From: Pseudomaricurvus sp.
GTDB lineage: Bacteria > Pseudomonadota > Gammaproteobacteria > Pseudomonadales > Cellvibrionaceae
DNA length: 64,000 nucleotides
Assembly (NCBI RefSeq): GCF_965662505.1
Contig: NZ_CBFIHX010000002.1
Span: 1,948-65,947 of the forward strand
Reading direction: 5' to 3'
A program made the position numbers and the translations under genes. This document shows, one piece after another, positions 2,982 through 59,375 of the stretch. The notes under the pieces were generated by a model that worked only from the letters and a program-made list of their open reading frames with translations, was not told the DNA's origin and did no database searches. Position 1 is the stretch's first letter; every line of letters begins with the position of its first letter.

Positions 2982-4436
2982 TCAATCAATATCCGGTGCG
3001 GTTTGTTGGTGGTGATCCGTTACCTGCTGGAACTGGTGGGCGGCGTTTAACAGCTTGCCCTCAGCAAAGAAATTGCCGATCAATTGCAGTCCCACAGGTT
3101 TGTTGTCGACCAGGCCGCAGGGAATTGATACGCCGGGCAAGCCCGCCAGGTTAGTGGCGATGGTGTAGATGTCTTCCAGGTACATGGCGACGGGATCGCT
3201 GCTCTTGGCGCCGAATTCAAACGCCGGAGACGTTGCAGTGGGCCCCAGAATCACATCCACATCATTAAAGGCGTCCACAAAATCCTGTTTGATCAGGCGG
3301 CGAACCTGTTGGGCCTTGCGATAGTAAGCGTCGTAATAACCCGCAGACAGCGCGTAGGAACCTACCAGGATGCGTCGTTTCACTTCCTCACCAAAACCTT
3401 CACCGCGGGAGCGCTTATAGAGGTCGTTCAGGTCTTTTGGATCTTCACAGCGATAGCCGTAGCGAACGCCGTCGAAGCGAGACAGGTTGGCGGAGCATTC
3501 CGCCGGAGCGATGACGTAGTAGGCCGGCACAGAAAGATCCGTGTGTGGCAGGCTGATTTCCTTGATTTCGGCACCCAGCTTTTCAAACTCCTTGATGGCC
3601 GCCTGAACGCGTTCGCCGGTTTGCGGATCGAGACCTTCGCCAAAGTACTCTTTGGGTACGCCGATGCGCAGGCCTTGCAGGCTGTCATTCAGGTTGGCGG
3701 TGTAATCTTCCAGAGGCTGATCCACACAAGTGGAATCCTTGGCGTCAAAGCTGGCCATGGTGTTCAGCATGATGGCGGCGTCTTCGGCGGTGCGGGTCAG
3801 AGGACCGCCCTGATCCAGACTGGAGGCAAAGGCGATCATGCCCCAGCGGGAAACCCGGCCATAGGTGGGCTTCAGGCCTGTCAGGCCACACAGACTGGCT
3901 GGCTGGCGGATGGAGCCGCCGGTATCCGTGGCGGTGGACGCTGGAGCCAGATGCGCGGCGACCGCCGCTGCAGATCCGCCAGAGGAACCGCCGGGCACAC
4001 AATTGGTGTTCCAGGGGTTTTTCACCGGCCCGTAAAAGCTGCTTTCGTTGGAGGAGCCCATGGCGAACTCGTCCATGTTGACCTTACCCAGCATCACGGC
4101 ACCGGCGTTGCGGTAGTTTTCGACCACAGTGGCGTCGTAGGGCGGGATAAAGTTATCCAGCATTTTGGAGCCACAGCTGGTGCGAATGCCATTGGTGCAG
4201 AAGATGTCTTTGTGGGCAATGGGGACGCCACACAGCGCCGGGGCATCGCCCAGAGCCAAGCGCTCATCGGCGGCCTTGGCCTGTGCCATGGCGATGTCTT
4301 CAGTGACGGTAATAAAGCTGTTGTAGCGGCTGTCCAGACGGGCGATGCGATCCAGATAATGGCGCGTCAGCTCGACACTGGAAAAATCCTTGTTGCGCAA
4401 GCCCTTGATCAGCTCGGCAATGGTCAAATTGTGCAT
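2982..4436 (-). CDS. gatA: Amidotransferase subunit A
   Basis: Amidase signature [12 protein letters not shown] and [11 protein letters not shown]; [11 protein letters not shown]. Confidence 0.98.
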
Positions 4437-4492
4437 GGGGGTGTCCTGGGTGTTTTAAGTCGTTTGGCCTGAGAGTTATCGGTAGCAGAGTG

Positions 4493-4774
4493 TTAATCGA
4501 TAACTTTGGGCACCAGATACAGTCCTTGCTCTGCCGCAGGGGCCAAAGCCTGAAAATCTTCCCGTCGGTTGCTTTCGGTTACCACGTCGGCTCTCAGGCG
4601 CTGGGTGGCGTCCAGGGGGTGAGCCATGGGGGCAATGCCGTCGGTGTCGGCGGCCTGAAGCTGGTCAACCAGGGTCAGTACGTCCGTTATGCTTTTGGCG
4701 ACCTCATCGACAGTTGAATCTGCAATCTCGATGCGCGCCAGTTCAGCCAGCTTTGCAATGTCTGAACGATCCAC
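4493..4774 (-). CDS. gatC: Amidotransferase subunit C
   Basis: GTG start with a GGAG RBS; IAKLAELARI, PMAHP, LRADVV, YLVPKVI; first gene of gatCAB. Confidence 0.95.
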   Translation of the reverse strand: MDRSDIAKLAELARIEIADSTVDEVAKSITDVLTLVDQLQAADTDGIAPMAHPLDATQRLRADVVTESNRREDFQALAPAAEQGLYLVPKVID

Positions 4775-34889: not shown

Positions 34890-37109
34890 ATGAGCAAATG
34901 GACTGATTTTATGGGTTGGGTTGACGCACGTTTGCCGGTGACGCGCGCGTGGGAAACCCACATGAGCAAGTATTACGCTCCCAAGAACTTTAACTTTTGG
35001 TATTTTTTCGGGGTTCTCTCGATTTTGGTACTGGTTAACCAGCTGTTAACCGGTATCTGGCTGACCATGAACTACACGCCCAGTGCCGAAGAGGCGTTTG
35101 CCTCGGTGGAATACATCATGCGTGATGTGGACTACGGCTGGCTGCTGAGGTACATGCACTCCACAGGCGCTTCCGCATTCTTTGTGGTGGTCTATCTGCA
35201 CATGTTCCGTGGCCTGATGTACGGTTCCTACAAGGCTCCTCGCGAGCTGGTGTGGATTTTCGGTATGACCATCTATCTGGCGCTGATGGCCGAAGCCTTT
35301 ATGGGCTACGTGCTGCCGTGGGGACAGATGTCCTATTGGGGTGCCCAGGTTATTGTTTCCCTGTTTGGTGCAATTCCAGTTGTGGGTGATGATCTGGTTC
35401 AATGGATTCGCGGTGATTACCTGATCTCCGGTGCGACCCTGAACCGCTTCTTCTCTCTGCACGTGGTTGCGTTGCCGATTGTGATTCTGGCTCTGGTGGT
35501 CATGCACATTCTGGCACTGCACGAAGTGGGTTCCAACAACCCGGACGGCGTTGAAATCAAGAAGAACAAAGATGAAAACGGCGTGCCGAAAGATGGCGTT
35601 CCTTTCCATCCCTTCTACACAGTCCATGATCTGGTGGGCGTGACGGTATTCCTGTTTGTTTTCTGCTTCGTTCTCTTCTTTATGCCAGAGATGGGCGGGT
35701 TCTTCCTGGAGTATGCCAACTTTGAAGTGGCTAACGGTCTGAAAACCCCTCCGCACATTGCGCCGGTTTGGTATTTCACACCTTTCTACGCCATCCTGCG
35801 GGCTGTTACCATTGATATTGGTCCACTGAGTTCCAAGTTCCTGGGTCTGGTGGCCATGGGCGGTGCGATTGCGATTCTGTTTGTCTTGCCGTGGCTGGAT
35901 AAGAGTCCTGTGAAGTCCATGCGTTATAAAGGCTTTATGCCTCGCGTATCGCTGATGTTGTTTGCGGCCATGTTCGTTGTACTGGGTTACCTGGGTGTGA
36001 AAGCGCCTACGGAAGGTCGTACAGTTCTGGCTCAGCTGGCGACGGTGTATTACTTCGCTTACTTTATCCAAATGCCGATGTTCACCAATCCGCTGAAGAA
36101 GCAGACGGGTATTGTGAATATCGTCATCAGCCTGTTGCTGGGTGCGTTGCTGCTGAAGCTGTCTTGGGTAGGCTCTGACAAGTACCCGCTGTTTATCAGC
36201 CTGTTTGGTACTGTGATGGGTCTGTTTGTTGCGGCAACACCTTGGTTAACCGCCAAAGATGGCGTCGAGCCCGAGCCTGAGCGTGTGCAGTCCAAAGGCT
36301 TGCCGAAAATGCTGGTTTGGGGTGGCTTTATTCTGTTCCTGTTCCTGACCATCGCACCCATCAAAGCGGTTGCTGCGGAAGGGGCTTTTAATTGTGGTGC
36401 CATCCAGTGTGATGAGATGGTGCCAGACTTGAAAGACAAAGAGTCCCTGCAACGTGGTGCCAAGTGGTTCGCTAACTACTGCATGGGCTGTCACGCAGCA
36501 AAGTTTTCACGCTACCAGCGTGTAGCGGATGACCTGGGTATTCCTCATGAAGTCATGTTGGATAACATCGTCTTTGGCGACCAGAAAATCGGTGAGCTGA
36601 TGGAAATTCCCATGCAGCCAAGTCAGTCCAAAGCCTGGTTTGGTGCCTCGCCACCGGATTTGACACTGGTTGCCCGCTCTCGTTCTCCGGAGTGGCTCTA
36701 CACTTATTTGCGCAGCTTTTACGCCGATGACACGCGCCACACTGGCGTTAACAACAAGGTCTTCGATAAGGTTGCCATGCCGCACGTGATGCTTGAGCTG
36801 CAAGGCTTGCAGGAGTGCGCGCCGGGCCCGAAACTTGACCACCACGGTAAAGTGATTCGCGATCCGGTGACGGGTGAAGCCATTGCTGAAGCCGAGTGTG
36901 GTAGTCTGCAAGTTGGCAAGGTGAAAGGGACCATGGATGAAAAGGAATTTGATCAGGCCATATACGATCTGGTGAATTTCCTGGAATACATTGCTGAGCC
37001 GGTTGCGGTTGATCGTGAGCGCATCGGTGTCTACGTGCTGTTGTTCCTCGCCGTATTGTTTGTTTTTGTCTACCTGTTGAACCGCGAATACTGGAGAGAA
37101 ATCCACTAG
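34890..37109 (+). CDS. petBC: Fused cytochrome b / cytochrome c1 polyprotein
   Basis: One 739-aa ORF: cytochrome b heme-His motifs (YMHSTGAS, YLHMFRG, FSLHVV, VMHILALH) and PVWY, then c1 with CMGCH, PPDLTL and a C-terminal anchor ending LLNREYWREIH. Confidence 0.93.
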   Translation: MSKWTDFMGWVDARLPVTRAWETHMSKYYAPKNFNFWYFFGVLSILVLVNQLLTGIWLTMNYTPSAEEAFASVEYIMRDVDYGWLLRYMHSTGASAFFVVVYLHMFRGLMYGSYKAPRELVWIFGMTIYLALMAEAFMGYVLPWGQMSYWGAQVIVSLFGAIPVVGDDLVQWIRGDYLISGATLNRFFSLHVVALPIVILALVVMHILALHEVGSNNPDGVEIKKNKDENGVPKDGVPFHPFYTVHDLVGVTVFLFVFCFVLFFMPEMGGFFLEYANFEVANGLKTPPHIAPVWYFTPFYAILRAVTIDIGPLSSKFLGLVAMGGAIAILFVLPWLDKSPVKSMRYKGFMPRVSLMLFAAMFVVLGYLGVKAPTEGRTVLAQLATVYYFAYFIQMPMFTNPLKKQTGIVNIVISLLLGALLLKLSWVGSDKYPLFISLFGTVMGLFVAATPWLTAKDGVEPEPERVQSKGLPKMLVWGGFILFLFLTIAPIKAVAAEGAFNCGAIQCDEMVPDLKDKESLQRGAKWFANYCMGCHAAKFSRYQRVADDLGIPHEVMLDNIVFGDQKIGELMEIPMQPSQSKAWFGASPPDLTLVARSRSPEWLYTYLRSFYADDTRHTGVNNKVFDKVAMPHVMLELQGLQECAPGPKLDHHGKVIRDPVTGEAIAEAECGSLQVGKVKGTMDEKEFDQAIYDLVNFLEYIAEPVAVDRERIGVYVLLFLAVLFVFVYLLNREYWREIH

Positions 37110-39192: not shown

Positions 39193-39205
39193 ACTTGTGA
39201 GACTT

Positions 39206-39247
39206 AAACAAAAAAGGCGATGGTGTGAATCATCGCCTTTTTTGTTT
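39206..39247. terminator. Bidirectional terminator
   Basis: Perfect 17-bp stem AAACAAAAAAGGCGATG...CATCGCCTTTTTTGTTT between convergent genes. Confidence 0.9.
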
Positions 39248-39259
39248 GCGGAGGGAGTG

Positions 39260-40228
39260 TTATTGCTGCAATTCCTTCTCGCTGAACTGACCGGCAAACA
39301 GGATGCTGGACAAATAGCGTTCGCCAGAGTCAGGCAGAATGACAACGATATTTTTACCACCATTCTCGGGCAGCTCTGCCAGGTGCAGGGCCGCAGACAG
39401 TGCTGCGCCGGAGGAAATGCCTGCCAAAATACCTTCTTCTTTCATCAAGCGTTGTGCCATCTCAATGGCATTTTCATTACTGACTTTTTCGACGCCATCG
39501 ACCAGGGAGATATCCAGGTTCTTTGGGATAAAGCCGGCGCCAATACCCTGAATTTTGTGAGGGGAGGGCTGTATCTCCTCGCCGGCGATGGTTTGGCTGA
39601 TAACAGGGGAAGCTTCAGGTTCTACTGCGATGCACTTTACATCCAGTCCTTTGGTATTTTTCAGGTAGCGGGCGGTACCGGTCAGGGTGCCGCCAGTGCC
39701 AACGCCCGCGACAAAGATATCCACCTTGCCTTCGGTATCTTCGTAAATTTCAGGGCCGGTGGTTTTTTCGTGAATCTCGGGGTTGGCCGGATTTTCAAAT
39801 TGTCGCGGCATAAAGGTGCCTTGTGGATCCTGCGCTGCAATTTCTTCGGCTTTGGCGATGGCGCCGTTCATGCCTTTTTCGCCAGGAGTCAGTTCCAGTT
39901 CGGCTCCCAGCGCTTTGATCAGCTGACGACGCTCCAGACTCATGGTGTTGGGCATGGTCAAAATCAGTTTGTAGCCTTTTGCGGCGCACACGAACGCCAG
40001 TGCAATGCCTGTGTTGCCGCTGGTGGGTTCAACCACGGTCATGCCTGGTTTTAGGGCGCCGCGTTTTTCTGCGTCCCAGATCATATTGGCGCCAATGCGG
40101 CATTTTACCGAGGTGGCGGGATTGCGTGACTCCAATTTAACGAAGACATTTTTATCGGTAATCCGGTTCAGCTTGACCAGTGGCGTTTTGCCGATGGTCA
40201 GCGAATTATCTTGGTAAATCTGGCTCAT
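39260..40228 (-). CDS. cysK: Cysteine synthase A
   Basis: PLP-Lys [43 protein letters not shown]. Confidence 0.97.
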
Positions 40229-52770: not shown

Positions 52771-53976
52771 ATGACGACCATTAAAAAAATTAGCTTGGCG
52801 CAGCTCAGGGTGGGGATGTATGTCACCCAGGTTGATAAAACCAGTGCTGCAGGTGCCAACCTCAGGGCACAGGGGCTGATTACTCGTGAAGATACCATTG
52901 AGCGGTTCCGCCAGCAGGGCATGCAGGAGTGTTTCATCGATACTGCCAAGGGAGATGATTGCCCCGAAGGTATTCCGCTGAAGCCGTTACGCAATCCTGT
53001 TGAGACACACTTTCCTCAGTGTGACGAAGATTTTCCAGTCCCAAGAGTTCCCTATGAAGAGGAGCGTGAAAACGCGATCAGAGTGCGCAATAAAGCCCTG
53101 ATGCTGGTTAGTGATGTCATGCACGATGTCAAAATGGGCCGCTCTGTTGATCGCTCAGCTGTCGATAATATTGCCTTGGATATCACCGAGTCGCTGGTGA
53201 ATAACCAAAATGCCTTGCTGAGCCTGATGTATATGGGCGAGAAAGACGAATACCTGTTGGAACACTCCATGAACGTGGCGGTGTTAATGGGGGTGCTGGC
53301 CCGTTCCTTGGGATATCGCGATGAAGAGCTTCACCATTTGGTGATGGGAGCTTTTGTTCATGATGTAGGGAAGATACGTGTGCCTGAAAGCATTCTCCAT
53401 AAACCGGGCAAGCTGGAACTGACCGAATGGGAAGAGATGAAGCGCCATGTGGATTACGGCATTGAAGCGTTAGAGGCGATTGATAACTTCCCGGAAATCG
53501 CGATGGCCATTTGTACTGAGCACCACGAACGGCTGGATGGCACTGGTTACCCATCCCGCAAGCCCGCGGCTCAGATCAGTCGGCAGGGGAGGATGGGGGC
53601 GGTGGTCGATGTGTATGATGCGATTACATCGGACAGGGTTTACCACAAAGGACTGGAGCCGAATGCGGCTTTGAAAAAAATGCTGGAGTGGAGCGGCGAC
53701 CATCTGGATCGTGAGCTTGTTTATCAGCTTATCCGCTGTGTGGGGGTTTATCCGGCTGGCTCTATGGTGCAGCTTGACTCTGGTCATGTGGGAGTAGTGC
53801 TGGAAGTCTGTACTCGTCAGCCCGCTCAGCCAAGATTAAAACTGGTGTATGACGGCAGGCGTCAGCTAAAAATGCAGGAGAAGATCATTAATCTGGCAGA
53901 TACCGATTTGTATGGCAATATCGCATCGGCAGTGGTTCCCTCGACATTTGGTTTGAATGCCAGGGATTATTTATAG
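52771..53976 (+). CDS. HD-GYP c-di-GMP phosphodiesterase with DUF3391-like N-terminus
   Basis: IKKISLAQLRVGMYV, EHSMNV, VHDVGK, HHERLDGTGYP, DVYDAITSDRVY. Confidence 0.92.
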   Translation: MTTIKKISLAQLRVGMYVTQVDKTSAAGANLRAQGLITREDTIERFRQQGMQECFIDTAKGDDCPEGIPLKPLRNPVETHFPQCDEDFPVPRVPYEEERENAIRVRNKALMLVSDVMHDVKMGRSVDRSAVDNIALDITESLVNNQNALLSLMYMGEKDEYLLEHSMNVAVLMGVLARSLGYRDEELHHLVMGAFVHDVGKIRVPESILHKPGKLELTEWEEMKRHVDYGIEALEAIDNFPEIAMAICTEHHERLDGTGYPSRKPAAQISRQGRMGAVVDVYDAITSDRVYHKGLEPNAALKKMLEWSGDHLDRELVYQLIRCVGVYPAGSMVQLDSGHVGVVLEVCTRQPAQPRLKLVYDGRRQLKMQEKIINLADTDLYGNIASAVVPSTFGLNARDYL

Positions 53977-54055: not shown

Positions 54056-54958
54056 TTAGCTTTCAGCCGAGGTTGAAGCTGAGCGCTTGGGATCAAACTG
54101 CTTGAGTTTGTTAAAGCGAATCATCCCCTGCAAGTCGTGAATGTACACTTCCCCTTTCTCTGAATATTTCTCCAGTCCTTCAGCCAGTGCGAGACTGTCG
54201 AGGGACTGTTTTTCTTGTCTGAAGTCAGCGCGTATTTCTCGAACTTTTTCATAGGCCGGGTGTGAATTAATGTTTAGCATATACGCGGCAACAGCAGCAT
54301 CCAGGCTGTCAAAACTCGCCACTTCATGTGTTGCGCCGGGGATTCGACGGCTGGGTACAACGCCGCAGCCAGCGGTAAAACACCACTGACCAAAATAGTT
54401 ATTGGCTTCTTTGGCAAAGCGGGAGCGTCCCCAGGCTGACTCCATCGCCGCTTGCGCCAAAGCCATCGACGGAGGGACTACGTCAATGCGGGTCATCAGG
54501 TCTTGAACAAGCTCTTTATCGGATAACTCTTCTGGTGCCCGGTATCTGAGAGCCCAGGTTTCCAGAGTCGCCTGTTGTCTGAGACTGAGGCTTTTGCCGT
54601 TCGTTTGGCGTTCAGCGATGTCCTGCAATTGCTGTCTCTGTTTGCTGATTTTTGCGTTTTGGCGAATGATCGCAGGCAAAAGTCGTTTGTAAAAGCTTTT
54701 CTTCAGTGCCGGAGTATCTTGTGGAATTGAGGGGATCTGAAGTGTCTCTGCGACCTGTTGATCTTCATCTTCCAGGGTTTCTCTGCGCGATGCACGAGAC
54801 TCTTCACGGGCCTGGCTTTTGATTTCATGAGAGGCTTTAAATTCTTCGGTGTTATGTAACCAGTGTTGTAAGAAAAACACTCCGGCCAGACAGAAACAGC
54901 TGAACGCGACAAACAGCCAGCCGAGCCAGACGTTTTTAGTGGATGGTGTGTTGCTCAT
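54056..54958 (-). CDS. Bax-like GH73 glucosaminidase-domain protein
   Basis: N-terminal TM; PPSMALAQAAMESAWGRSRFA, NNYFGQWCF, YMLNINSHPAY, GLEKYSEKG. Confidence 0.88.
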   Translation of the reverse strand: MSNTPSTKNVWLGWLFVAFSCFCLAGVFFLQHWLHNTEEFKASHEIKSQAREESRASRRETLEDEDQQVAETLQIPSIPQDTPALKKSFYKRLLPAIIRQNAKISKQRQQLQDIAERQTNGKSLSLRQQATLETWALRYRAPEELSDKELVQDLMTRIDVVPPSMALAQAAMESAWGRSRFAKEANNYFGQWCFTAGCGVVPSRRIPGATHEVASFDSLDAAVAAYMLNINSHPAYEKVREIRADFRQEKQSLDSLALAEGLEKYSEKGEVYIHDLQGMIRFNKLKQFDPKRSASTSAES

Positions 54959-55083
54959 GAAAAACCTCAAAATGACTGTTGAATACTAGTGTCGGGACAG
55001 CGCAGCGTTGTCAGGCTACGCCCAATGACAAAACGGGTAGGTGAGTGGCGATGTTCTCGAAATGGCAAATGTTATTAATGCGT

Positions 55084-55767
55084 TTATAACCCCAGATCTT
55101 TGCGCAGGGACGCCAGTCGCTCGAGGTTTTCATCCTTGCTCAACGGTGTTTCGGTTTTTTCCGGCAGGCGTTTAATCTCAGGAGGCGGCAGGGTTTCACC
55201 GCGGACCACCCGATCACACAAGGTTCGATAGTGATCGCGGAACACGGGAAAGGCTACGCGCTCAATATTGCTGTTCAGGAAATACCAGTCGCTGAGCTTG
55301 CCGGCGTGATAAACCGCGGGGTGGCTCCAGTTGAATTCGGCTTTCGGGCTGGGTGCCTGACAGGCTTCGATGTAGGCACTGTGCACATCGGGCAGGCCAT
55401 GAAGCGCCGGTGAACCCTGACAGAAGCCAATCATCTTGTGCAGGGTGGGCAAGTACTCAGATTCTTCAATCGCTTTTTTGGCGCCGCGCAAAATGGCGTC
55501 AGGGCTAAAGCGTTGCAGGGATTCCACCCACAGGCGCTTGGCTTGATTGAGTGTCGTGACATCGCCAAACGCGCTGTGATACTGGTTGTGGTAATTAATC
55601 CGGAACAGGGCAAACACCTGGTTGATGGCATCAATCAGTTCAGAAGAGGGAGCTCGTTCGCCGTGATTTTGCGAGGAATCAGAAGGCCCAGCTGCGGTCG
55701 TTGAGGTCTTCTGCGATCGAGCGATCTCTTGTTCTACTTGGCTGAGTAGTTGCTTGCTGTCCTTCAT
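55084..55767 (-). CDS. Lambda P-like replication protein (candidate helicase loader, DopE-like)
   Basis: AKRLWVESL, YLPTLHKMIGFC, GLPDVHSAY, WSHPAVYHAG and RVVRGETLPPP parallel the lambda P motifs recalled as FLPSPGQFVAWC, GLPN and RINRGEAIPEP. Confidence 0.8.
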   Translation of the reverse strand: MKDSKQLLSQVEQEIARSQKTSTTAAGPSDSSQNHGERAPSSELIDAINQVFALFRINYHNQYHSAFGDVTTLNQAKRLWVESLQRFSPDAILRGAKKAIEESEYLPTLHKMIGFCQGSPALHGLPDVHSAYIEACQAPSPKAEFNWSHPAVYHAGKLSDWYFLNSNIERVAFPVFRDHYRTLCDRVVRGETLPPPEIKRLPEKTETPLSKDENLERLASLRKDLGL

Positions 55768-56908
55768 GATTTCGACCTTGTGGGGCGTTGACGGTAGACG
55801 AACTCAAAGAGTGTCGTTTGGCCCAGTGAAATTTAACGTGTTGCAAAAATTTGGTGTTCCACGACGCGTAGACCTGGTTGCTGTCGCGCCAGAAGATTAA
55901 AAATTCCGGGAGCAGTTGTTGGGCAAAGCTGACATCGATGTTGGCCATGCGCAAAATGTCGTAGACATCACTGCCAGGTTGCCAGTTCTCCGGGATCCGG
56001 CGCGGTTCGCTGTCGTGCTCGAGCGCAGAGGTGTATCTGGCCCACTGACGCCGAATGTGCTGGATAAATTTGGTGTTCCAGGTGCGTGATCGCTCGCCGC
56101 GCTCTGCCCAGTAGAGAATGAATTCCGGAATCGCATCCTCGATAAACTGGGGATGAATCGCGGCGTGTCGTGTGAGCACATCCATGGCGTCAGGACTGGG
56201 TCGCCAGTCTCGGGTCATGGCCACTTCGCTGTCTTTTTGAGTGGTAAAGGTTTCACGCTGACGCCACTGATGTAAAACATGCTGATGGAACTTGGCGCCC
56301 CAGGAGCGATGCGCCTCACCGCTTTCCCGCCAGAAGGTGACAAACTCCGGCAGTTGCTCGCGAATAAAGTGCTCGGGAATGTTGTGCTGTGCAATGCGTG
56401 CCAGCATTTCTGCATCCGGCTGCCAGTTGGGGGCAATGGCGGTGGCGCCCACGGCGACTGACGGACGTGGCTGTCGTGATGGGTGATGCTGGGGCTGGGA
56501 CTGAATCGGGGGCTGAAAACCGTTGTTGCTCTGTGGCTGGTGTTGAGGCTGGTGTACCGGCGCTTGCGGATTACTCCCGGCTTCGGGTTGAACGTTTGCC
56601 TGGGGTTCGTTAAACGCAAAGATCAGTTGCTGGCTCTGCACAAACGGAGCCGATTGCAGCAACAGGATGCCTTTGGCCCGCAGGTTCTGACTGATGCGGT
56701 TGATGTCGTGCTGATTCCAGAAAGGTAGCGCGACGTACAGGGTCTGATCGTTCAATTCAAACCAGCGGAAGCCCTGACTGTCTACCGGTTGCAGCGGTCG
56801 GGTCAGTTCGTCCAGAACGCTGAGCATAGTGGCTTCCTCCAGGCCGATGGTGGCGGCCAGAGACGGAGAAACCAGAATAGGGCGTTCGGGGATCAGAGAT
56901 GATGTCAT
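55679..56908 (-). CDS. Lambda O-like / triple DnaT-like ssDNA-binding domain protein (DopC-like)
   Basis: Putative wHTH-like N-terminus, Q/P-rich linker, three W-x-P...PEF-x-x-[FY]W...W-x-x-KF-x-QH repeats, tail ending EDLNDRSWAF. Confidence 0.8.
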   Translation of the reverse strand: MTSSLIPERPILVSPSLAATIGLEEATMLSVLDELTRPLQPVDSQGFRWFELNDQTLYVALPFWNQHDINRISQNLRAKGILLLQSAPFVQSQQLIFAFNEPQANVQPEAGSNPQAPVHQPQHQPQSNNGFQPPIQSQPQHHPSRQPRPSVAVGATAIAPNWQPDAEMLARIAQHNIPEHFIREQLPEFVTFWRESGEAHRSWGAKFHQHVLHQWRQRETFTTQKDSEVAMTRDWRPSPDAMDVLTRHAAIHPQFIEDAIPEFILYWAERGERSRTWNTKFIQHIRRQWARYTSALEHDSEPRRIPENWQPGSDVYDILRMANIDVSFAQQLLPEFLIFWRDSNQVYASWNTKFLQHVKFHWAKRHSLSSSTVNAPQGRNHEGQQATTQPSRTRDRSIAEDLNDRSWAF

Positions 56909-57057
56909 GGGCGAACTTTAGCATTTTCTGGCGGATGAGTCGCTAGTGTCAGAAGACCCCAGGGTGGTTCGTGTCGGGTCTGGCAGGTACTATTCGGGTC
57001 ACACAGACTGGTCGGGTTATACAGACTGGATACGGACATGATTTTTCTGAGGATACC

Positions 57058-58434
57058 ATGGTGGCAAAAAGCAAAACCGCCTATGTCTGCAGCGAGTGCG
57101 GTGCAGATTTTACCAAATGGCAGGGGCAGTGCAGCGAATGCGGCAGCTGGAACAGCTTGTCGGAAGTTCGGCTGGGGCCCACTCCGGCCAATCGCACGGA
57201 GAAATTCACCGGTTATGCGGGCGCGGCGGGAGTTGCCCCTGAGATCCAGACGTTGGCCGAGATTGATCTGGAAGCCCTGCCGCGTTTTTCCTCTGGAGCG
57301 GGTGAATTTGACCGTGTGCTGGGGGGCGGGCTGGTGCCGGGTTCCGTGGTGTTGATCGGTGGCAATCCGGGAGCTGGTAAGTCCACACTTCTTCTGCAGA
57401 CTATGTGCTTTCTGGCGTCAGGCCGAGAGTCACTCTACTGTACCGGGGAGGAGTCCCTGCAGCAGGTGGCCATGCGAGCCAAGCGTCTGGGGTTGCCGAC
57501 CGACAAGCTGAAAATGTTGTCGGAAACCAGTGTGGAGTCGCTGGTGGCCACCGCACAGAAGCTGCAACCCAAAGTCATGGTGGTGGATTCCATCCAGGTC
57601 ATGCACATGGCCGATATCCAGTCTGCACCGGGTTCCGTCTCTCAGGTGCGGGAGAGCGCTGCCTACCTGACGCGCTTTGCCAAGCAGACCGGCACAGTGC
57701 TGATCTTGGTAGGCCATGTCACCAAAGACGGCAGTTTGGCCGGTCCCAAGGTACTGGAGCATATGATTGACTGTTCCATTTTGCTGGAAGGTACCCACGA
57801 TTCCCGTTTCCGTACTCTGCGGGGCAGCAAAAACCGCTTTGGTGCGGTGAATGAGCTGGGGGTGTTCGCCATGACCGAGCAGGGTTTAAAGGAAGTCAGT
57901 AATCCCTCGGCCATCTTCCTGCAGCGCGCCGATGAGATTGCCGCGGGCTCCGTGGTTATGGTGGTGTGGGAAGGTACTCGCCCATTGCTGGTGGAAGTTC
58001 AGGCGCTGGTGGATGACAGCCATCAGGGCAATCCGCGGCGGGTGGCTGTGGGGCTGGATCAGAACCGCCTGAACATGCTGTTGGCGGTGCTGCATCGTCA
58101 CGGTGGTGTATTGATCGGTGATCAGGACGTCTTTATCAATGTGGTCGGCGGTGTGCGGGTGATGGAAACCAGTGCAGATCTGGCCCTGCTGCTGTCGGTG
58201 GTGTCGAGCTTTCGCAATCGCCCTCTGGGGCACGATTTGATGGTCTTCGGTGAGGTGGGGCTGTCCGGTGAGATTCGTCCGGTGCCCAGTGGTCAGGAGC
58301 GCTTGCGGGAAGCGGCCAAACACGGCTTTAAAACCGCAATAATGCCTGCCGGAAATGCTCCGAGGGAGACTATTCCCGGCATTAAAGTGATTGCCGTCAA
58401 AACCTTGCAGGAGGCTGTGGCGGCTATCGACTAA
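57058..58434 (+). CDS. radA: DNA repair protein RadA/Sms
   Basis: C4 zinc finger, GGNPGAGKST, KNRFG, Lon-like C-terminus. Start is ATG 57058 or GTG 57061. Confidence 0.98.
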   Translation: MVAKSKTAYVCSECGADFTKWQGQCSECGSWNSLSEVRLGPTPANRTEKFTGYAGAAGVAPEIQTLAEIDLEALPRFSSGAGEFDRVLGGGLVPGSVVLIGGNPGAGKSTLLLQTMCFLASGRESLYCTGEESLQQVAMRAKRLGLPTDKLKMLSETSVESLVATAQKLQPKVMVVDSIQVMHMADIQSAPGSVSQVRESAAYLTRFAKQTGTVLILVGHVTKDGSLAGPKVLEHMIDCSILLEGTHDSRFRTLRGSKNRFGAVNELGVFAMTEQGLKEVSNPSAIFLQRADEIAAGSVVMVVWEGTRPLLVEVQALVDDSHQGNPRRVAVGLDQNRLNMLLAVLHRHGGVLIGDQDVFINVVGGVRVMETSADLALLLSVVSSFRNRPLGHDLMVFGEVGLSGEIRPVPSGQERLREAAKHGFKTAIMPAGNAPRETIPGIKVIAVKTLQEAVAAID

Positions 58435-58494: not shown

Positions 58495-58881
58495 TCAGAG
58501 CTCATCGTTGTCCGTGAGGATGTTCTCCAAGGTGCGGTGCATCTCTGATGGCCGCTGGTTGCGTCCCACCAGCTCCCGCAGTCGGGACTGGTGGTCAATG
58601 CTGTTGGCGCGACACTCAACCCCAATAAAGTGATTCTTCTGATGGGCAATCTTGCCGTGCATCTTGATGGGGTCACCGTCGTCAGTTTCCAGTGTGAGTA
58701 CGATTTCCTCTCCCTGATCTACCTCGTATCTGTGGATCAAAGCCACCAAAGCGCCGTTGAACGACAGGTCGATGATGTGCACAGGCCATTTTTGGTGGGT
58801 GGTAATCATAGAAGCATGGCCGCGAAAGCCTACCCGAGGGAAGTATCGACGCTCCTGTGATTTCATACCGACTACGGTCAT
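58495..58881 (-). CDS. Stand-alone PilZ-domain protein (diverged MapZ-like paralogue)
   Basis: RxxxR (RRYFPR) and DxSxxG (DLSFNG). Confidence 0.88.
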   Translation of the reverse strand: MTVVGMKSQERRYFPRVGFRGHASMITTHQKWPVHIIDLSFNGALVALIHRYEVDQGEEIVLTLETDDGDPIKMHGKIAHQKNHFIGVECRANSIDHQSRLRELVGRNQRPSEMHRTLENILTDNDEL

Positions 58882-58973
58882 TCTGCCTCCTCGTGGGTGT
58901 TGGTCATGATGTTTTCGATAGGTAAGTGAGATAGTTAAGTTTTAGAGAACCATGCTTTAGATAACCGCATAAA

Positions 58974-59375
58974 TCAGTCGGGATTAATCAGCGCATGCAG
59001 CTCGCGATCGGCAGCCTCGGAATCTCCCAGGTTCAGCTCGATGAGTCTGCGCAGGTGACTCAGGCTAACCGGGTCAATGCGCTCTACGATAAACCCCATC
59101 CAGCCTTCCTTGCGCCAGGACAAACGTGCCACCAGCTCAATGAGCGAGTCATCGGACAGGGCAATGGTGACATCCACCGGCAGGTTTTCATCCAGTGAGC
59201 AGTGCTCTGGCTCAGTAATCAGCAAGCCTTTCATCGAGATGTCCAGCAACTGGCTGGGCCAGCGCAGGGTGTCCTGTTGGATCGAGGTGTCGGCATCAAA
59301 AGGAATTCGGCTGAAGCGTCTGCGTTCAGAGTGACTGGTTCCGGATTTTGGGTCGCTTGCTGGGGGTGTGGCCAC
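58974..59375 (-). CDS. Stand-alone PilZ-domain protein, MapZ (PA4608)-like
   Basis: ERRRFSRIPFDAD, DISMKG, SLSHLRRLIELNLGD; near radA, as in Pseudomonas. Confidence 0.9.
   Translation of the reverse strand: MATPPASDPKSGTSHSERRRFSRIPFDADTSIQQDTLRWPSQLLDISMKGLLITEPEHCSLDENLPVDVTIALSDDSLIELVARLSWRKEGWMGFIVERIDPVSLSHLRRLIELNLGDSEAADRELHALINPD

Follow-up and report, generated by a model that had tools for sequence, protein, structure and literature searches.

Cellvibrionales and a subset of Oceanospirillales are without dciA and dnaC/dnaI (PMC5509034), which raises the question of what loads the replicative helicase DnaB in these bacteria. Here we analysed a 64-kb stretch of Pseudomaricurvus sp. 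DNA, hereafter the window, which carries on its minus strand a gene pair for a protein with DnaT-type domains and a lambda-P-like protein (Table 1). Judged by sequence, the two genes are almost certainly the orthologues of dopC and dopE as described by Brezellec et al. (2017, Genome Biol Evol 9:1561, PMC5509034), the study to which the initial annotation of this DNA had rightly pointed, and they lie at the coordinates it had given. We consider it likely that they form a resident module in which DopE acts as a DnaB loader of the lambda P type and DopC as its adaptor, together standing in for DciA and DnaC. As the pair is the published dopCE module the finding is rated as already known, and the anatomy added here is modest.

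In the 2017 study dopE, a resident lambda-P-like gene, was the one gene tracking the loss of dciA and dnaC/dnaI, and dopC always preceded it, encoding a helix-turn-helix (HTH) N-terminus and a C-terminal DnaT motif and containing no iterons (PMC5509034). The clade-level anticorrelation of dopE with dciA and dnaC is documented there and in a second paper (PMC5509034, PMC11087808). The window pair comes from a genome outside the 13 of the 2017 paper, and nothing essential differs: the same two genes are found in the same order, with PF06992 in the one product and HTH plus DnaT in the other, in a non-prophage context and in the Cellvibrionales lineage. The published hypothesis has the pair as the replicative helicase loader, serving both oriC initiation and fork restart, and later papers cite the loader role only as a suggestion (PNAS 2024, PMC11087808; NAR 2025, PMC12661323). 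The overlap of the two genes, the tail motif of DopC, the synteny with a glucosaminidase gene, the dominance of three DnaT modules (range 1-4) and the phage relatives are unmentioned in the main text of the 2017 paper.

The orthology extends over both proteins. Over its full length DopC shares 54% identity with its Cellvibrio japonicus homologue P0235, and DopE is 63% identical over its full length to the C. japonicus 'replication protein P' P0031. The nearest DopE relatives are found in Aestuariicella (95%), Pseudomaricurvus (70-76%) and Cellvibrio (about 63%), and the relatives of DopC follow the same taxonomic pattern. DopE is 56-95% identical to chromosomal Cellvibrionaceae proteins and at most 29% identical to sequenced phage P proteins, with a best IMG/VR relative at 45%; it should be noted that these are sequence identities and not a tree.

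A scan of one genome per species revealed a DopE relative in at least 530 species genomes, and the synteny counts given here refer to the best 80 loci, all from Cellvibrionaceae. In 79 of these dopC lies directly upstream of dopE, and the remaining locus is truncated at the edge of its contig. The glucosaminidase gene comes next after dopE, in the same orientation, in 70 of the 80 genomes, and a polysaccharide deacetylase gene lies nearby in 59, while radA adjoins in 16 only, a subclade; the synteny classes defined by radA and glucosaminidase go with subclades. In distant lineages, where DopC identity falls to 38-40%, the two genes remain neighbours but stand in other cellular contexts, and the locus is also present in marine plankton metagenome runs. 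At least 79 species genomes, with DopE identities of 56-82%, keep the pair intact, adjacent and syntenic, and substitutions in its single-coding parts are biased to the wobble position. This pattern of adjacency and synteny argues for a resident, vertically inherited module and not a decaying prophage.

The composition of the pair is likewise that of its surroundings. The GC content at third codon positions (GC3) is 0.62 and 0.64 for the two genes and 0.52-0.67 for the neighbours, and their codon-usage correlation with the neighbours (0.78 and 0.84) falls inside the neighbours' own range of 0.65-0.92, so the codon style is host-like, as the initial annotation had held. Its statement that phage genes are missing also stands: among the 46 larger open reading frames (ORFs) spread over the entire window and scanned for family matches, none matched a phage integrase, repressor, structural (capsid, tail) or lysis family. 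With a core context, host-like codon usage, and adjacency and synteny kept across at least 80 species, the domestication of the pair is strongly supported.

Domain architecture of DopC and DopE

DopC contains three DnaT DNA-binding domains of the family PF17948 (E 2e-70, 232.9 bits against a Pfam cut-off of 25 bits), and the DnaT chains 9zbu and 4ou7 of the PDB match its residues 136-207 at E 2e-4 to 1e-3, which agrees with the DnaT-domain protein proposed initially. The AlphaFold2 model, built from 106 sequences, has a mean predicted local distance difference test (pLDDT) score of 80.5; the three-helix bundles, at about 160-225, 232-298 and 305-369, score above 90 and are followed by a disordered stretch and a short tail helix. 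At the DNA level the triplicated module appears as the repeats D1/D2, spaced by 219/222 nucleotides (nt), and these are the only periodic repeats in dopC, in which no iterons were found. The wider DopC family comprises 743 clusters at E<=1e-3, and among 150 representatives typed for architecture the N-domain followed by three modules dominated (70), with one, two and four modules also present.

The first 83 residues of DopC show a weak match (2e-4) to the phage 'DnaD-like helicase loader' family phrog_6493. In Foldseek searches the N-domain matched plasmid RepA_N-type initiators (4pql, 4pt7 and 5kbj) with a probability of 0.97-1.0, though at E of only 0.035-0.2; for phage replication proteins the E values were 1e-6 to 1e-4. 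The linker behind the N-domain is indel-rich in the orthologue alignment, differs in length between species and contains two acidic residues only. At the other end of the protein, T393, D404, R405, S406 and W407 of the tail are invariant in 106 DopC orthologues; these five positions fall within the last 17 residues (...TRDRSIAEDLNDRSWAF).

What DopC has in common with E. coli DnaT (PDB 4OU6/4OU7, 9ZBT/9ZBU) is the C-terminal three-helix domain that binds single-stranded DNA (ssDNA). DnaT has one copy of this domain and oligomerises, whereas DopC has three copies in one chain. Further, DopC is without the N-domain of DnaT (19.3 bits against a cut-off of 201 for the NCBIfam equivalog NF002770, over profile positions 82-149 only) and has, unlike DnaT, a winged-helix N-domain and a distinct tail; the linker of DnaT is acidic and docks on PriB, while that of DopC is rich in glutamine and proline. 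Binding of ssDNA by DnaT needs K133, K143, R146, Y127, W128 and F135, as found by mutagenesis (PMC4132743). All three DopC modules keep Y127/W128 as [FY]W, plus the equivalents of W140 and K143, and by analogy DopC may well bind ssDNA through them, a reading which we favour with some reserve. In the preprimosome structures of 2026 the C-terminal domains of DnaT dock on PriA and the acidic linker on PriB, and the domains form a left-handed filament around the lagging-strand ssDNA with two nucleotides per domain-domain interface (PMC13377028). By the same analogy the three linked modules of DopC might act as a ready-made short filament.

The initial annotation had also called this protein O-like. 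That term holds for the gene position and for the general winged-helix initiator fold, but no homology to lambda O was detectable: the DopC profile aligned with authentic lambda O at an hhalign probability of 0.1%, and PF04492 (Phage_rep_O) gave no match in DopC at E<=1. By contrast, the O protein of Pseudomonas phage Ab31 matches PF04492 at 4e-19. Lambda O has four 18-nt iterons annotated inside its gene, where dopC has its module repeats only.

DopE matches PF06992 (Phage_lambda_P) at E 3.2e-12 and 47 bits, against a cut-off of 26 bits, over a Pfam stretch of residues 47-196, and the 'P-like helicase loader' family phrog_109 at 2.9e-25. It further matches the lambda P chain of PDB 8v9t over the full length (1.2e-3) and aligns with authentic lambda P in hhalign (E 1.2e-4, 155 columns), which substantiates the P-like protein of the initial annotation; NCBIfam has no model for it. 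Lambda P (PDB 6BBM/8V9T) is thus of the same Pfam family but only about 25% identical, and DopE differs from it in being a resident host gene product with a partner other than lambda O.

The four-domain plan of lambda P is known from the 2.66 Å structure of its complex with DnaB, in which the C-terminal lasso contacts the DH-LH junction of DnaB and seems to engage the helicase before the other parts do (PMC12661323). In the AlphaFold2 model of DopE (94-sequence alignment, mean pLDDT 73.7) the N-terminal helix is the positional equivalent of domain I, the N-terminal lasso, and M1, D3 and S4 of DopE are conserved; a disordered stretch separates this helix from the core, which corresponds to domains II and III. 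Residues 189-227 align with lambda P 190-229 through RGE.(L/I)P.P..LP....PL....L, the G, P, LP and PL positions being conserved in both, and are the equivalent of domain IV, the C-terminal lasso. From alignment and model, DopE appears to have the whole four-part plan, including the C-terminal lasso helix. By analogy with lambda P, we think it probable that DopE loads DnaB.

Overlap, expression signals and phage relatives

The two genes share an out-of-frame overlap, the dopE ATG (55767) sitting 89 nt upstream of the dopC stop (55679). The length is 89 nt in 73 of the 80 loci and 83-101 nt in the rest, with a constant frame offset, and in the distant lineages L092 and L095 there are ATGs that would give overlaps of 89 and 80 nt. 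The corresponding overlaps are 4 nt for O/P of lambda, 1 nt for O/P of phage Ab31, 8 nt for P12026 and 1 nt for the pair of viral contig L090. The entropy by codon position within the overlap is 0.46, 0.59 and 0.75 bits, compared with about 1.3 bits at the wobble position of the single-coding flanks, and as it is low at all three positions neither frame has its wobble position free. The 'TAAGP' stretch of DopE is the alternative reading of the codons for 'DRSWA' in DopC. This part of the constraint probably comes from the DopC frame, since phage homologues keep DRSWA without the overlap. DopE begins with conserved codons (M-[KQ]-D-S) at a place where the DopC sequence otherwise varies.

It is likely that the overlap gives tight translational coupling of dopC and dopE. 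A programmed +1 frameshift fusing DopC to DopE was considered as well, but need not be invoked: dopE has a conserved ATG preceded at 9-12 nt by an AAGG/AGGG-like sequence, which speaks for independent initiation.

Upstream of dopC an extended -10-like sequence, TGCTAAAGT, ends 6 nt before the ATG in the window, and relatives conserve the block TAGCGACT...ATG[AC]TAAAGT at the dopC start. In 74 distinct dopC loci we detected no Shine-Dalgarno core at -16..-5 of the ATG (0/74), and in 31 of them TGnTAnAnT ends 4-8 nt before it. The missing core along with the -10-like sequence so near the ATG is a weak hint that some members of the family make a dopC mRNA with no leader or a very short one. A 267-nt contig from the sediment metatranscriptome run X4, 98% identical to window positions 56393-56659 within dopC, suggests, if weakly, that the gene is transcribed in a close relative, and is uninformative on operon structure.

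Relatives of the two proteins occur in phages. The initiator of Stenotrophomonas phage StM171 (QYW06371) is collinear with DopC 1-230 at 28% identity (BLASTP E 3e-14) and 37% identity between the N-termini, where its motif M.SS..LIPE.P.LV.PSLA..GL.EA is almost identical in DopC. It is phage-borne and has one PF17948 module (1.5e-13) instead of three and no DRSWA tail; initiators of this type are also present in Xanthomonas/Stenotrophomonas phages. Others ending in a DnaT domain are those of SPN1S (YP_005098021), phiV10, TL-2011b, Rac (YdaU) and of Aeromonas and Actinobacillus phages. The 2017 paper suggested that the DnaT architecture of DopC was a post-domestication substitution (PMC5509034). 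As the combination of winged helix-turn-helix and DnaT exists in phages it need not be so, and our data suggest that the architecture predates domestication.

The C-terminal half of DopC has relatives of its own on the IMG/VR contigs L085-L089, of about 37 kb, which encode a protein of the 195-amino-acid type made of two PF17948 modules (E 3e-44). These 2xDnaT proteins are 36-43% identical to DopC residues ~142-408 and have no winged-helix N-domain. The annotated contig L085 also encodes a transposase, a MuB-like transposition protein and a Mor-like activator, and no P-like gene was present in the 5.5 kb seen around the Mu-like 2xDnaT gene. At least those of L085, L086 and L089 end in the tail motif of DopC (L.E.L.DRSWA; RSIAEQLTDRSWA). 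Such a protein may be a phage primosome adaptor for replicative transposition in hosts of the DopCE type.

The closest viral relative of DopE (45% identity) is encoded on L090, a contig with genes for Mu Gam, an endolysin, a portal and a head protein. In the region 3513-4549 it directly follows a 154-amino-acid protein equivalent to no more than the C-terminal portion of O-like/DnaD-like replisome organisers, without a winged-helix N-domain and with the tail motif (RRTRDIPLQESLTDCSWA); the loader itself lacks the first ~40 residues of DopE, and so the N-terminal helix. From its occurrence in these phage proteins it follows that the tail motif is conserved independently of the overlap and travels with loader-related genes. 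On sequence grounds we tentatively propose the tail as a docking site for DopE or DnaB, an assignment which has less than even standing with us. The phage genes are either ancestors of the host pair or captures from the host, and none of the sequenced phages inspected has the full dopCE arrangement.

Proposed helicase loading and competing explanations

Beyond the observed identity, orthology, domestication, architecture, overlap and phage relatives of the pair, all biochemical steps that follow are inferred. By analogy with lambda P, several copies of DopE would attach to the host DnaB hexamer at its C-terminal tier via the conserved C-terminal lasso helix, opening the ring and keeping it so until ssDNA is delivered. 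DopC would be the adaptor choosing the loading place, its three linked DnaT-type modules wrapping ssDNA as the DnaT filament does in the E. coli preprimosome, and its winged-helix N-domain and invariant tail (L.DRSWA) contacting DNA or protein partners; among its parts the tail would be the most likely docking peptide for a DopE-DnaB complex. The two genes would be expressed as a single unit, coupled by the 89-nt overlap, and the module would replace DciA/DnaC at oriC and probably also act at PriA-bound forks by means of the DnaT modules. Further, we speculate on a stricter version, which we regard as rather unlikely in its full detail: DopC would be a covalent three-unit seed of a DnaT filament on ssDNA at DnaA-melted oriC or PriA-bound forks, with the tail recruiting DopE-DnaB, and the module, expressed in a fixed ratio through the overlap, would replace DciA, DnaC and DnaT together, having descended from transposable-phage or StM171-type replication genes and not from a lambda O/P pair.

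Several observations weigh against a DopCE loader. The DnaT-domain initiators of StM171 and SPN1S have no adjacent P-like gene in the sequenced phages inspected, and sequenced phage P genes adjoin initiators that are of the Phage_rep_O type or untyped and not DnaT-like; as these phages carry the two halves apart, their functional coupling is without tested precedent. DnaT K133 and R146 have no conserved counterparts in the DopC modules, and as the linker is not acidic, docking on PriB in the manner of DnaT is unlikely. A Foldseek search of the DopE model, which is multi-domain and flexible, against the PDB found no lambda P chain, the best match being SPP1 G39P (1no1, E 2.1, probability 0.9), hence the lambda P assignment rests on moderate sequence profiles (E 1e-3 to 1e-25). 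No dciA, dnaC, priA, priB or dnaB is present among the 46 scanned ORFs, a check which covers the 64-kb window only, and at the genome level the support is the clade-level literature. Finally, the searchable literature up to 2026 holds no experiment on DopC or DopE, so the remark in the initial annotation that the mechanism is untested still applies.

A rival explanation which we hold improbable is that the module serves restart only: DopC and DopE would be a DnaT/DnaC-like adaptor and loader at PriA-bound stalled forks and recombination intermediates, and oriC would be served by another factor or by self-loading of DnaB. The sole experimentally characterised role of PF17948 is in the PriA-PriB-DnaT preprimosome, and the closest viral relatives of DopC are those of Mu-like transposable phages. 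Mu replication depends on the PriA primosome and starts from a fork-like strand-transfer intermediate. In this subclade dopC also adjoins the recombination gene radA, but this adjacency holds in no more than the 16 of 80 genomes mentioned above. Restriction to restart further fails to account for dopE being the single gene tracking dciA loss, and lambda P acts at an origin.

Very unlikely in our judgement is that the P-like protein sequesters DnaB or competes with phage loaders and so excludes phages, without being the loader of the cell. Homologues are named 'replicative helicase inhibitor' in some source databases, and phage protection was raised by the 2017 paper as a possible selective advantage of the pair (PMC5509034). 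Defence genes are, however, typically patchy and placed in variable islands, while this pair is present in every examined locus of the family, in a core context, with conserved synteny and under strong purifying selection.

That the pair is a decaying cryptic prophage remnant without host function, as the phage relatives of both genes and the possible lysin type of the adjacent glucosaminidase gene might suggest, is effectively refuted by the scan and codon usage reported above, by the intact, adjacent and syntenic pair in at least 79 species genomes, and by the membrane-anchor-like N-terminus of the glucosaminidase, itself conserved in 70 of 80 genomes. Equally little credence is due to DopC as an initiator firing a secondary phage-type origin in or near dopC: its N-domain resembles winged-helix replication initiators and the lambda origin sits inside the O gene, but dopC has no iterons and the GC skew is positive throughout the 64 kb without a switch, so that neither dopC is an origin nor is an origin or terminus present in the window, an 18-nt tandem repeat upstream of dopC is not conserved, and in the 13 genomes of the 2017 paper the skew minimum lies at gidA-dnaA and not at dopC (PMC5509034).

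Neighbouring genes and meaning of the pair

The glucosaminidase and radA genes named as flanks in the initial annotation were both recovered (Table 1). The N-terminus of the glucosaminidase is hydrophobic, like a membrane anchor. No terminator-like site was found between dopE and this gene in the window scan, and the gene may belong to the same operon or be a co-domesticated phage gene. On the other side, the longest radA ORF begins with a GTG at 56971 and the conserved RadA N-terminus, MVAKSKTAYVCSECG, with the ATG at 57059; with this start the spacer between dopC and radA is about 150 nt.

Two repeats near the pair were examined and set aside. A 26-nt imperfect direct repeat (54986-55011 and 56943-56968, 73%) brackets the pair in the manner of att sites, but has an 8-nt seed and was judged to be chance. 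The 18-nt tandem direct repeat in the spacer (56989-57024, plus strand; units ACTATTCGGGTCACACAG and ACTGGTCGGGTTATACAG, with a degenerate third unit) was considered as a shared regulatory site and rejected as such, being not conserved in 12 radA-adjacent relatives.

Table 1. Positions of the features of the dopC-dopE locus and its flanks in the window
Feature	Position	Strand	Basis
dopC coding sequence, 409 amino acids plus stop	55679-56908	-	ORF; PF17948 x3; AlphaFold2
DopC winged-helix domain (putative), N-terminal, residues ~10-100	56609-56881	-	pLDDT about 95; winged-helix helix/strand order
DopC Q/P-rich linker, predicted disordered, residues ~101-155	56444-56608	-	pLDDT below 50
DopC DnaT-type three-helix module 1, residues ~158-226	56231-56437	-	Pfam; helices 166-173, 179-196, 203-224
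DopC DnaT-type module 2, residues ~231-299	56012-56218	-	best Pfam stretch 230-296; helices 239-248, 253-270, 277-298
DopC DnaT-type module 3, residues ~305-372	55793-55996	-	third Pfam stretch; helices 313-321, 326-343, 350-369
DopC conserved C-terminal tail, residues 392-409, ...SRTRDRSIAEDLNDRSWAF	55682-55735	-	invariant positions in orthologues
Out-of-frame overlap of dopC 3' end and dopE 5' end, 89 nt	55679-55767	-	sequence; dopE in +1 frame
dopE coding sequence, 227 amino acids plus stop	55084-55767	-	ORF; PF06992, phrog_109, lambda P profile match
DopE N-terminal helix (predicted), residues 2-21	55705-55764	-	AlphaFold2, low confidence, pLDDT about 50
DopE helical core (predicted), residues 42-188	55204-55644	-	pLDDT 85-93 for 41-120, 62-85 beyond
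DopE C-terminal extended segment and helix 211-224, residues 189-227	55087-55203	-	lambda P alignment; AlphaFold2
Promoter-like sequence upstream of dopC	56915-56952	-	consensus scan site 56952->56923; function inferred
Glucosaminidase-domain gene	54056-54970	-	PF01832; directly 3' of dopE
radA	56971/57059-58434	+	Pfam; other flank of the pair

Every family-matching ORF among the 46 is a housekeeping gene: cysZ, gatBA, mreBC, rng, yhdP, mgtE, rapZ, rpoN, lptBC, kdsD, mlaC, murA, hisGD, a DegS-like protease gene, zapE, rplM, petA, a fused petBC, a glutathione S-transferase (GST) gene, a cysteine-synthase-like gene, parC, a glpD-like gene, aceK, the polysaccharide deacetylase gene, an HD-GYP gene, radA, two PilZ genes and TonB/FecCD/ABC transport genes. 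One of the 46, the frame 39197-40054 (plus strand) opposite the cysteine-synthase-like gene, gave no family match. The ORF 34890-37109 (plus strand) encodes 739 uninterrupted amino acids with cytochrome b (residues 27-389) and cytochrome c1 (516-737), and as both domains lie in a single ORF it appears to be a petB-petC fusion. Two small tandem PilZ-domain genes (58495-59375, minus strand) adjoin radA and an HD-GYP phosphodiesterase gene lies at 52771-53976, and by these positions cyclic-di-GMP signalling genes flank the dopCE locus in this subclade.

DciA, DnaC/DnaI and VdhL1/2 of Vibrionaceae (PMC11087808) have the same proposed role as DopCE and no sequence relationship to it. DnaC and VdhL are like dopCE in being of viral origin and in replacing dciA (PMC5509034, PMC11087808), and DopCE is unlike all of them in being a two-protein module. 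Nine years on, the loader hypothesis of 2017 is unchanged, and the window adds no new system. The added anatomy eases its testing, as it provides a candidate docking peptide in the tail and three modules with key residues; the dual-coding overlap constrains separate mutation or expression of dopC and dopE, and StM171-type initiators and the Mu-like 2xDnaT tail proteins are natural minimal versions for comparison. If the hypothesis is true, DopCE would be a third, two-protein loading mechanism beside DciA and DnaC/DnaI, and, as argued in the 2017 paper, no bacterial lineage would be left without a dedicated helicase loader.

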